Positions 62,601 to 64,000 of a DNA stretch of 64,000 bases are shown one piece after another. Source of the stretch: Lama guanicoe (lineage: Eukaryota); the NCBI GenBank assembly GCA_013239625.1, contig MU053196.1, forward strand, positions 1-64,000, given 5' to 3'. The notes under the pieces were generated by a model. The model ran no database searches and was not told the origin of the DNA. It was given only the letters and a program-made list of their open reading frames with translations. Position numbers and translations under genes: made by a program. How positions within the stretch are numbered: position 1 is the first letter of the stretch; every line of letters starts with the position of its first letter.

Positions 62601-64000
62601 GATGTTTCATGATCAGCAAACACTGTTCAATATAATAAGCCAAATGCTGCCCTTGTCTGTAACTGCTGGTTTCTGGCTTTATTACATTTTGCTCTTGTAA
62701 GAAGAAATAAAAGGTACTGGCCATTTAGAAGTCAGCTCCAGTTTCTGACACAGACAACTGACAGTGAGTCAAGGCCAGTGCTGTTACAAAAACCAAAGAG
62801 AACAGGAACCAGGAAAGCAAAGGACAGACATGCCTCGGCAACTATGCCTTGGCCCTAGGGTGGCTTCCTGCAAAGCAGCACGTAACTGTGCAGGTGATGC
62901 TTTGAGACCCAGCAAGAGACTGAGGCAGGGGTCCCCCTGTGGCGCAAGCCACACGCACAGCACATACCTATCACTGCGGCCAGCACAGGCCACGGTCGCT
63001 TTCAGAGCGGACACCCAGGTCCAGGCGTGAAGGCCCCGGTGCTTAGCGGCACTATCCTTACCTACCCACTATCTTCAACAAACGGTCTCTGCCTTTTGCA
63101 CCTCGGGACCTATTTCCATGATCTCTGGGAAGGAGCCAGAGAGGGCCAGCCCAGAATCCACGGGAACCACAGGAGTGGCGTTAACACCAGAGATGGAGGC
63201 AGTGGCCAGAGGTGGGGAGAGGGGAGCTCAAAGCGGGGACCAAGGAGAACACATCAGAATCAGTCATTCAGGGAAAGGAAGAAAAGCAATCCAGACAGAA
63301 GGGCACGGGCTAAGGCAGGGAGAATGAACCACAAGGCATTCTGACATGTGGGCAGCTGGTGGCGCCTAGAGAGGGGCGGGCAGGAGAGCCCGAGAGAAAG
63401 CCACCAGCACCCCCTGAATGTAAGTGCTGCATCCTAGAGTCAAGGGTGGGGGCGCTCGGGGTGGGGGGTGGATTTACTTTGCTAAGTTTCATCCAAGCCA
63501 AAGTTCCCCTTTGGATCTGTCGAGATGTGGTCCCAGACAACTGAGGAAATGGAGCTATGCTGTCCAGCAGTCAAACACAGCTTTCAGTTTTCACAGAGTA
63601 AGTTTCCACACACCACCTGGGCCCCCAGTCACCCATGTGACCCACACTACAGCCCTTCCCCCAGAACAGAGAAACGTCCCTCCACCGGGAAATGCGTTTG
63701 CTCTGTGTGTTCTGCTGGGTCACAGGAAACAAAACAAACCAGCAAAATTCCTCCAGTTACCCAGATACAGGCAGCTCTGCATGGGCTGCAGCAGGCCCCA
63801 GGAGCCCACCTGTACAAGTGGTCCATCCCCCGGGCACCCACCTGTACAAGCGGTCCATCCCCCGGGTGCCCATCTGTAAACAAGCGGTCCATCCCCCGGG
63901 CACCCACCTGTACAAGCAGACCATCCCCCGGGAGCCCACCTGTACAAGCGGTCCACCCCCCGGGCGCCCACCTGTACAAGCAGTCCATGTAGTCTGCACC
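20517..64000 (-). CDS. CUL2: Cullin-2, 5'-partial multi-exon gene (exon 4 partial to exon 21)
   Basis: 18 exon segments with compatible phases translate from [10 protein letters not shown] to ...[16 protein letters not shown], matching cullin-2 as recalled; includes the cullin homology domain and the C-terminal neddylation motif [11 protein letters not shown]. Confidence 0.99.
21079..21245. repeat. ~34-bp minisatellite, about 4.5 copies, intron 20
   Basis: Unit GTCCTGAGCCACTCTGCACCCCGACTCCAGCCCC with variants. Confidence 0.9.
21495..21611 (-). CDS. CUL2: CUL2 exon 20 (EMEQTR...IVRIMKARK...ALIQE), carries the neddylated lysine
   Basis: 117 bp, aaacag| and |gtaaag. Confidence 0.97.
22650..23615 (+). 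mobile_element. LINE-1 3' end (L1MA/MB type)
   Basis: ATGGAATATTATGCAGCCATAAAA...ACATGGATGGACCTGGAGGG ORF2 end, long 3' UTR, TATCTCAATAAA and A tail. Confidence 0.85.
23849..23950 (-). CDS. CUL2: CUL2 exon 19 (EDIDAES...QKDTPQ)
   Basis: 102 bp, ttgtag| and |gtgagt. Confidence 0.97.
25675..25877 (-). CDS. CUL2: CUL2 exon 18 (GEVKMNY...NHDSEK)
   Basis: 203 bp, ttgtag| and |gtacgg; within ORF 25459..25938. Confidence 0.97.
31182..31248 (-). CDS. CUL2: CUL2 exon 17 ([22 protein letters not shown])
   Basis: 67 bp, ttacag| and |gtaaaa. Confidence 0.97.
34500..35030 (+). mobile_element. Old L1M 3' fragment (GC-shifted), host of the tRNA-half insertion
   Basis: GGAATGAAAACATG..., AATGTTCTAAAATT...ATACACTGAAAACCACTGAA motifs. 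Confidence 0.7.
34785..34822 (+). pseudogene. Tailless retrocopy of the tRNA-Lys(CTT) 5' half
   Basis: CCCGGCTAGCTCAGTCGGTAGAGCATGAGACTCTTAA, flanked by perfect TAAACCAGGCAACTCTA at 34762-34778 and 34820-34836; no 3' half. Confidence 0.9.
35031..35350 (+). mobile_element. MLT1/MST-type solo LTR nested in L1
   Basis: TGTGTCTCCTCAAATTCGTACGTTGAAAT...GGATCATGAGG...GCCCTC MaLR motifs; L1 resumes after it. Confidence 0.7.
35928..36005 (-). CDS. CUL2: CUL2 exon 16 (AGAWPLTQ...EKSVQM)
   Basis: 78 bp, gtccag| and |gtaagt. Confidence 0.97.
36271..36423 (-). CDS. CUL2: CUL2 exon 15 (QACGYEF...QIYVLQ)
   Basis: 153 bp, ttgcag| and |gtacgc. Confidence 0.97.
37419..37505 (-). CDS. CUL2: CUL2 exon 14 (FYARMLAKR...MINKLK)
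   Basis: 87 bp, atgcag| and |gtactg. Confidence 0.97.
37587..37715 (-). CDS. CUL2: CUL2 exon 13 ([11 protein letters not shown]...DKDVFQK)
   Basis: 129 bp; GAG acceptor and non-canonical AAG|gcaagt donor. Confidence 0.95.
38393..38452 (-). CDS. CUL2: CUL2 exon 12 ([20 protein letters not shown])
   Basis: 60 bp, gtttag| and |gtaagt. Confidence 0.97.
39108..39283 (-). other. Extra copy of exon 11 fused to the last 23 nt of exon 10, followed by intron-11 sequence
   Basis: 39108-39260 repeats 39290-39442 with 2 mismatches; 39261-39283 is identical to 40803-40825 (exon 10 end), so the spliced junction ...CAGGAAAAC|ATGCCAACA... is present in DNA. Confidence 0.92.
39335..39442 (-). CDS. CUL2: CUL2 exon 11, canonical copy ([18 protein letters not shown]...SALDK)
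   Basis: 108 bp, ctttag| acceptor and |gtaact donor. Confidence 0.96.
40803..40927 (-). CDS. CUL2: CUL2 exon 10 (DMANMYVLL...ATGNLAQEN)
   Basis: 125 bp, cctcag| and |gtgagt. Confidence 0.97.
41515..44620 (-). mobile_element. Old L1M cluster in intron 9
   Basis: T-rich antisense L1 sequence; boundaries approximate. Confidence 0.7.
42347..43735 (-). mobile_element. Younger L1 (L1MA-like) nested in older L1
   Basis: ORF 42637..42870 has [20 protein letters not shown](A/C)TGACTGTCTC at 42333-42346 and 43736-43749. Confidence 0.85.
44820..44982 (-). CDS. CUL2: CUL2 exon 9 (VLGRLKDEE...RQEKKN)
   Basis: 163 bp, ctaaag| and |gtaagt; seen in ORF 44812..45015. Confidence 0.97.
46350..46858 (-). mobile_element. 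L1M 3' end fragments
   Basis: ATTGTGGTAAAATATATATAACATAAAAT...CATTTTAACCATTTTTAAGT motif and downstream antisense L1 sequence. Confidence 0.75.
47919..48029 (-). CDS. CUL2: CUL2 exon 8 ([10 protein letters not shown]...SQYMEK)
   Basis: 111 bp, atttag| and |gtaaga. Confidence 0.97.
48126..48222 (-). CDS. CUL2: CUL2 exon 7 ([10 protein letters not shown]...KKFPLK)
   Basis: 97 bp, tttcag| and |gtaaaa. Confidence 0.97.
50783..50911 (+). mobile_element. Vic-1-like SINE
   Basis: tRNA-like head; perfect TSD AAAAAGATGGAGT ending at 50781 and at 50912-50924. Confidence 0.85.
52314..52510. repeat. 51-bp minisatellite, about 4 copies, intron 6
   Basis: CCCACAGG anchor at 52341, 52392, 52443 and 52487. 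Confidence 0.9.
54249..54331 (-). CDS. CUL2: CUL2 exon 6 ([27 protein letters not shown])
   Basis: 83 bp, ggcag| and |gtgagt. Confidence 0.97.
54740..55650 (-). mobile_element. Ancient L1M fragment
   Basis: Degenerate antisense L1 motifs; boundaries approximate. Confidence 0.5.
57593..57698 (-). CDS. CUL2: CUL2 exon 5 (YLNTQFIKK...PLMEIGE)
   Basis: 106 bp, tttcag| and |gtagga boundaries. Confidence 0.97.
60494..60725. repeat. ~35-bp minisatellite with higher-order structure, intron 4
   Basis: Unit CACACTGCCTCACA(C/A)AGGCTC...CTGCT; a 52-bp exact block recurs at 60518 and 60657. Confidence 0.9.
61400..61700 (-). mobile_element. Ancient L2-like fragment
   Basis: AATAGTCCAGGTGAGAAATG...AGAGACATTTGGAGG antisense L2-like motifs. 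Confidence 0.5.
62065..62260 (+). mobile_element. MIR SINE
   Basis: GACCTGGGTTTAAATCCTAGC...GTGACCTTGAGCAAAGTCATTTAACCTCCCTGA...CTGTAAAA core. Confidence 0.75.
63796..63988. repeat. 32-bp minisatellite (6 copies) spanning the exon 4 / intron 4 junction
   Basis: Unit CCCCCGGG(C/A/T)(A/G)CCCACCTGTACAAGCGGTCCAT with variants; donor-position dinucleotides start at 63808, 63840, 63872 (mutated), 63906, 63938 and 63970. Confidence 0.95.
63972..64000 (-). CDS. CUL2: CUL2 exon 4, 3' part ([10 protein letters not shown]), truncated by window edge
   Basis: GGTGCAGACTACATGGACTGCTTGTACAG|gtgggc; phase 2 matches exon 5. Confidence 0.93.

Follow-up and report, generated by a model that had tools for sequence, protein, structure and literature searches.

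When a repeat grows across the end of an exon and multiplies its splice donor, which of the donors is used, and does the number of copies matter to the gene? This question is raised by a minisatellite at the end of a 64,000-nucleotide stretch of DNA from the guanaco, Lama guanicoe (assembly GCA_013239625.1, contig MU053196.1, positions 1 to 64,000 of the forward strand; hereafter the window), which carries most of the CUL2 gene on its minus strand. The donor of one CUL2 coding exon lies in the first of six tandem units there, and most of the following units repeat it. The analysis presented here indicates that the native donor probably defines the exon, that the copies are probably silent pseudo-donors whose rare use would be cleared by nonsense-mediated decay (NMD), and that the most distal copy, although in frame, is unlikely to give a functional isoform. 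The anatomy of the array, its reading frames and stops, its presence in other animals and the choice of the native donor in gene models are all directly supported.

A minisatellite across a CUL2 splice donor

The exon that bears the native donor, presumably exon 4 by human numbering, reaches into the window only with its last 29 nt (63972..64000, minus strand), which end in codon R106 and the donor CAG/GTGGGC after 63972. The acceptor partner of all the donors discussed below belongs to the next CUL2 exon (57593..57698, minus strand; 106 nt, residues 106/107-141), which corresponds to residues 107-141 of the solved structures, and 17 coding exons map from 57698 down to 20520. One exon of 54 residues is 100% identical to its counterparts in alpaca and camel CUL2, against no more than 98% for the other mammals listed, which identifies the animal as a camelid. 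A wild-camel gene model differs from the window by several residues in intron-derived stretches, so that a South American camelid is more likely.

Tandem Repeats Finder (TRF), run on the window, reports a repeat at 63796-63988 with a period of 32, 6.0 copies, 85% matches and a score of 284. Together with the coordinates of the units this delimits a minisatellite (63796..63988, minus strand) of six head-to-tail units with a G+C fraction of 0.62-0.72, the first of which lies across the exon/intron boundary. Every unit joins 17 nt of exon end to 15 nt of intron start and measures 32 nt, except unit 4 with 34 nt; their starts, read on the minus strand, are 63988, 63956, 63924, 63892 (the 34-nt unit), 63858 and 63826. 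The motif CAG/GTGGG is retained in five of the six units, that is, in the native donor of unit 1 (63957..63988, 17 exonic and 15 intronic bases) and in four of the five units beyond it. These four pseudo-donors, given with their last exonic base and the extension of the exon they would cause, are CAG/GTGGGC after 63940 in unit 2 (63925..63956, +32), CAG/GTGGGT after 63908 in unit 3 (63893..63924, +64), CAG/GTGGGT after 63842 in unit 5 (63827..63858, +130) and CAG/GTGGGC after 63810 in unit 6 (63795..63826, +162), all on the minus strand. Unit 4 (63859..63892, minus strand) has a dead donor, through a GT>AT change, and a 2-nt insertion within its palindromic core, and the intact units differ from one another at 2-7 of 32 positions. 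The original prediction of a 32-bp unit composed of about 17 nt of exon and 15 nt of intron, of five intact donors in six units with one inactivated by GT>AT and a 2-nt insertion, and of extensions of 32, 64, 130 and 162 nt is borne out by the TRF repeat, the unit starts and the donor coordinates.

Minisatellites whose first monomer spans an exon-intron boundary were defined as a kind by Borensztajn et al. 2006 (PMC1557585; this and the other papers given by accession are cited to the extent of their available text). The CUL2 element is a tandem array, its first unit lies over the authentic boundary and the donor recurs in the intron that follows; by its sequence it appears to join this kind, described in at least five human genes (F7, CBS, 6-16, LMNB2 and PDGFA). 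The 37-bp variable number of tandem repeats (VNTR) of F7 intron 7 likewise has its first monomer over the boundary and consists of 5-9 units whose size is similar, and both loci combine a GTGGG-type donor with a G-rich unit and include downstream donors that are stop-free. They differ in the exonic bases per unit (17 in CUL2, four in F7) and in the copies, which are identical in F7 but only 85% alike in CUL2, two being stronger and one dead; moreover, self-complementarity is a property of the CUL2 unit, F7 having shown no specific structure according to the available text. Among the loci described through the same paper (PMC1557585), the 31-bp VNTR of CBS intron 13 (Yang 2000, Lievers 2001) is donor-spanning with a unit length near that of CUL2, and the 6-16/IFI6 intron 2 minisatellite (Turri 1995) is donor-spanning too; these two have 15-25 copies against six in CUL2, and pseudo-donor use was observed there, whereas the CUL2 array is known here from sequence. 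LMNB2 (100-bp) and PDGFA (81-bp) also have the junction copied into the intron, with longer units and more copies (PMC1557585). The tandem repeats termed spl-TRs (Hamanaka et al. 2023, PMC10078293) share the idea that repeat length alters splicing in cis, but are defined by an association between repeat length and splicing across people, and none is known for the CUL2 locus from the available text. No report of the array was found among the records listed from the literature on donor repeats, CUL2 and camelid CUL2, most subscription papers and the supplementary repeat tables of camelid genome papers, in which it might appear, lying outside the scope of that search.

Raw reads, on which the original prediction had hinged in part, support the array by their word content. 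Fifty-seven words sampled from 63400-64000 were compared with sequencing runs, for which 24 rows were listed. Fourteen rows of DNA type, from 10 studies under four organism labels, hold 0.90-0.95 of the words, although one of them may be the source of the assembly and none reaches 1.00. The share of 31-mers expected is 0.67-0.69 for an allele with one unit, about 0.80 for three units and 0.91-0.92 for five, and under random word sampling a share of 0.72 would give at least 51 of the 57 words with a probability of 0.0008. Other animals therefore carry an array of some four units or more, the observed shares fitting five or six units, or six with a single-nucleotide polymorphism. The unit-4 insertion, on which the in-frame +162 depends, is unconfirmed outside this sequence because an allele whose unit 4 was regular would retain a share of 0.924 and still yield at least 54 of the 57 words with a probability of 0.35; it may exist in this allele or assembly only. 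Six rows that are or may be RNA contain 0.21 of the words. This small share could stem from an extended exon, from pre-mRNA, from carry-over of DNA or from a related species and was not used as evidence; four further rows hold next to none. The array stretch had no look-alike in the other genomes searched, and a 21-base unit pattern gave no match in metagenome contigs.

Reading frames, donor strength and folding of the units

In order to follow the consequences of each donor, all were joined in silico to the acceptor at 57698. Frame is kept for the native donor and +162 only. The +162 product gains 54 residues, ending in MDHLYR, and the in-frame, stop-free open reading frame (ORF) that had been claimed for it is present as a read-through of the exon into the intron (63647..63988, minus strand; 113 codons). 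The +32, +64 and +130 products meet stops 36, 22 and 22 nt into the 106-nt next exon, at 70-84 nt before the next junction and with 16 junctions downstream. A stop situated more than 50-55 nt upstream of a downstream junction is a signal for NMD; by this rule the three products would be NMD substrates, and their stops are placed as in alternative splicing coupled to NMD (AS-NMD). The claimed frameshift of the other donors is thereby upheld, as is the role attributed to the 2-nt insertion, in whose absence unit 4 (+96) would be the in-frame one. The openness of +162 is nevertheless no more than chance, because no stop interrupts the array in any of the three minus-strand frames, 36% of shuffled units are free of stops in all frames and a 32-nt unit is back in frame every third copy. 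The open frame is a property of the G+C-rich unit and bears no sign of selection, and the notion that an extension which is in frame and stop-free has been selected was rejected on account of the three open frames and the stop-free shuffled units.

Donor strength was expressed as duplex energy and as match counts against the U1 5' end and consensus motifs. U1 pairing amounts to -10.3 kcal/mol for the native, +32 and +162 donors and to -12.5 kcal/mol for +64 and +130, and the unit 3 donor has one U1 consensus match more than the native site; in the 16 other CUL2 donors the pairing ranges from -5.8 to -13.3 kcal/mol, with a median of -7.1. The first 190 intronic nt contain 12 G-runs, versus 0-5 in the 16 other CUL2 introns. 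G-run (hnRNP F/H) sites placed after both of two competing donors shifted use upstream in vitro (PMC1326234).

The unit is also a near-palindrome centred on the donor, a feature absent from the original prediction. All four pairs of units tried form an antiparallel duplex of some 20 bases, with energies from -27.8 to -31.0 kcal/mol. The array folds with a z-score of -4.2, none of 200 shuffles being as stable; tandem controls fold as well in 4 of 300 column-permuted arrays and in 24 of 300 arrays of dinucleotide-shuffled units. A selected structure was rejected on the latter count, a plain z-score being unfair to a tandem repeat. With unlimited span, opening the donor 9-mer costs 5.8 kcal/mol at the native site, and the corresponding values for +32, +64, +130 and +162 are 14.1, 10.8, 11.2 and 14.4 kcal/mol, respectively; in each of four folding-span settings none of the five GT donors costs more to open than +162. 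The other CUL2 donors have a median of 3.8 kcal/mol. These values come from equilibrium folding in which 29 nt of exon are included, and they shift with the length of the flanks, the cost for a single unit moving from 2.3 to 5.5 kcal/mol. Over 11 in-silico alleles the native donor opens at 5.5-11.8 kcal/mol, the observed array being at 6.0 and the one with a regular unit 4 at 11.8, and allowing for G-quadruplexes leaves the minimum-energy fold unchanged. The G-runs and the self-complementary unit together predict, within these models, a masking of the copies, and of +162 most. Just beyond the array, a GT site unrelated to it (TGG/GTAACT after 63761; 63755..63763, minus strand; +211, frameshift) has an opening cost of 3.4-4.9 kcal/mol, far below that of any intact copy, and is a candidate cryptic donor.

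Use of the donors

The most plausible history is that, in the camelid lineage, a 32-nt segment over the donor of CUL2 exon 4 underwent tandem duplication and grew to six copies that diverge slowly, probably through slippage or unequal exchange aided by the G+C-rich self-complementary unit. The first donor would carry about 95% or more of the splicing: the upstream donor would be made and bound first, the G-run spacers would act as intronic enhancers for it, and the units would pair mutually and bury the downstream donors. The rare use of +32, +64 or +130 would lead to premature stops and NMD, so that a minor NMD-bound leak may persist, and the in-frame +162 would be an accident of unit length.

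This reading has its experimental precedent in human F7 IVS7 (intron 7), where the splicing of 50 minigenes, assayed in three cell lines, was confined to the most upstream functional donor (PMC1557585). Donor choice was unaltered over 1-12 repeats, stronger downstream sites with a consensus value (CV) of up to 91 did not compete, and the stop-free fifth and sixth sites were unused, as judged by a non-quantitative reverse transcription PCR with NMD unblocked (PMC1557585). LMNB2 and PDGFA are cited in the same paper as using the authentic donor only. In camelids, all four gene models covering the exon have the native donor, which is joined to the next exon in P0019, P0022 and P0123 and to exon 7 in P0003, while a fifth model does not include this part of the gene; this evidence is weak as regards a leak and moderate as regards the long isoform. 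The original prediction had further proposed that donors compete and that copy number could tune CUL2 output or isoforms, and this finds no support, the F7 analog using its first donor whatever the copy number. Its in-frame isoform likewise fails to gain support from the camelid models, and +162 is the farthest and, in the folding models, the most buried of the donors.

Several observations weigh against so simple a picture. Judged by sequence, all four copies are credible donors and +64 and +130 appear stronger than the native one, and only two of the four span settings give the native donor the lowest opening cost. Two of the camelid models come from Camelus genomes, which may or may not carry the array, and gene models in general overlook isoforms that are rare or are targets of NMD. 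Where two equal donors lie about 40 nt from each other, the spacer by itself can move splicing entirely to the downstream one (PMC9410876). In F7 the removal of two G-triplets left donor use unchanged, and in CBS and 6-16 there is indeed a leak to the nearest copies (PMC1557585).

The last point underlies the alternative that survives best, which we nonetheless consider unlikely: a leaky array like those of CBS and 6-16, in which 5-30% of splicing goes to the nearest copies, +32 and the stronger +64, NMD destroys the products and alleles differ in the amount of CUL2 mRNA. It keeps the part of the original prediction that is workable. In both human genes two nearby pseudo-donors are used besides the authentic one (cited in PMC1557585), the U1 pairing of the CUL2 copies equals or exceeds that of the native donor, the distance of the stops from the next junction would suit NMD, and +64 opens more cheaply than the native donor in two of the four folding settings. 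The F7 minigenes argue the other way; moreover, the reported leaks go to the nearest copies, so extra distal units should change little.

A second alternative, which seems improbable, reverses the effect of the folding and lets the pairing of units mask the native donor itself, leading to some exon skipping or to a slow removal of intron 4, with the number and decay of units setting how free unit 1 is. A hairpin that hides a donor from U1 is known (PMC2794156), and both the low z-score, with few column-permuted arrays folding as well, and the modelled opening cost of the native donor above the median of other CUL2 donors are consistent with such masking. The stability of the array is, however, unexceptional against dinucleotide-shuffled arrays, the one-unit value depends on the flank, the model has only 29 nt of exon, and equilibrium folding ignores the co-transcriptional binding of U1 and hnRNP proteins. 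A related proposal, that unit number and the decay of unit 4 decide which donor is unpaired, so that alleles set the shares of productive, NMD-bound and +54-residue CUL2, is equally doubtful.

Very improbable is the production, from the +162 donor, of a regulated CUL2 isoform with 54 Gly/Pro-rich residues after R106, near the helix-5 residues that contact the substrate receptor. Besides its open frame, the last copy recreates MDHLYR ahead of the next exon, and Gln111 and Lys114 of helix 5 contact pVHL (PMC5462531). On the other hand, an in-frame site is expected every third unit, four donors precede the site, which is also the most buried one in the folding models, and the unit-4 insertion may be private. 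Nor did such a protein appear in the searches: a repeat-encoded 6-mer occurs in none of 124 fetched proteins, a repeat-peptide search gave none among 104 candidates at 112-2000 aa and no candidate at 34-111 aa, and among 1.84 billion proteins the repeat peptide had two unrelated matches, covering query residues 51-83 only and without the two cullin motifs checked. In the 105 fetched CUL2 proteins with the exon-4 peptide, the junction is uninterrupted in 90, is replaced by a skip to exon 7 in 13 and carries an unrelated 30-residue insert in two, both from pig. The pig insert (P0040, P0124) is in frame after R106, has a sequence unrelated to the camelid repeat and is gene-model output.

That the array is an assembly artefact is largely refuted and scarcely credible, since its intact units diverge and the word shares in the DNA-type rows far exceed those of a one-unit allele, even though the window contains a gap and a suspicious duplication elsewhere and no run holds all the sampled words.

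The remainder of the CUL2 span and the meaning of the array

Further minisatellites are found in the CUL2 span at 60493-60708 (35 bp), 52313-52516 (51 bp) and 21089-21234 (34/43 bp units), and the region is therefore prone to them. At 39108-39442 lies a 182-bp tandem duplication, 98.7% identical, which takes in a complete 108-nt CUL2 exon together with its donor and some 45 bases of intron. Two missense changes distinguish the second copy, and the 23 bases just before it match exactly those with which the previous exon ends (40803), as in a spliced junction; the duplication is either a chimera produced in assembly or an RNA-templated insertion whose source was a partly spliced transcript. A CAG in its spacer, 68 nt past the donor of the first copy, could define a 114-nt in-frame duplicate exon. 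An 81-nt intron at 37506-37587 has a GC donor (AAG/GCAAGT) and no in-frame stop, and the dromedary model P0022 keeps this intron as 27 extra residues. A short interspersed repeat is present in five copies (3974-4129, 6120-6265, 11624-11750, 12234-12354 and 50786-50916), which resembles the camelid tRNA-derived short interspersed element (SINE), and an 87-base run of N at 8170-8256 marks the assembly as a draft there.

If the most likely reading holds, the array matters little and is one more donor-spanning minisatellite. It does offer a natural test of 5' splice-site choice, as a single short array brings together copies that equal the native donor, exceed it in strength or are dead, and its self-pairing unit adds a feature that F7 lacks. 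Should alleles prove to change the dose of CUL2 or to make the long isoform, the array would matter more, as CUL2 is the scaffold of the VHL ligase. Were the pairing of units to select the donor, a minisatellite allele could tune CRL2-VHL/HIF signalling in camelids, with the insert placed beside the helix that contacts pVHL.

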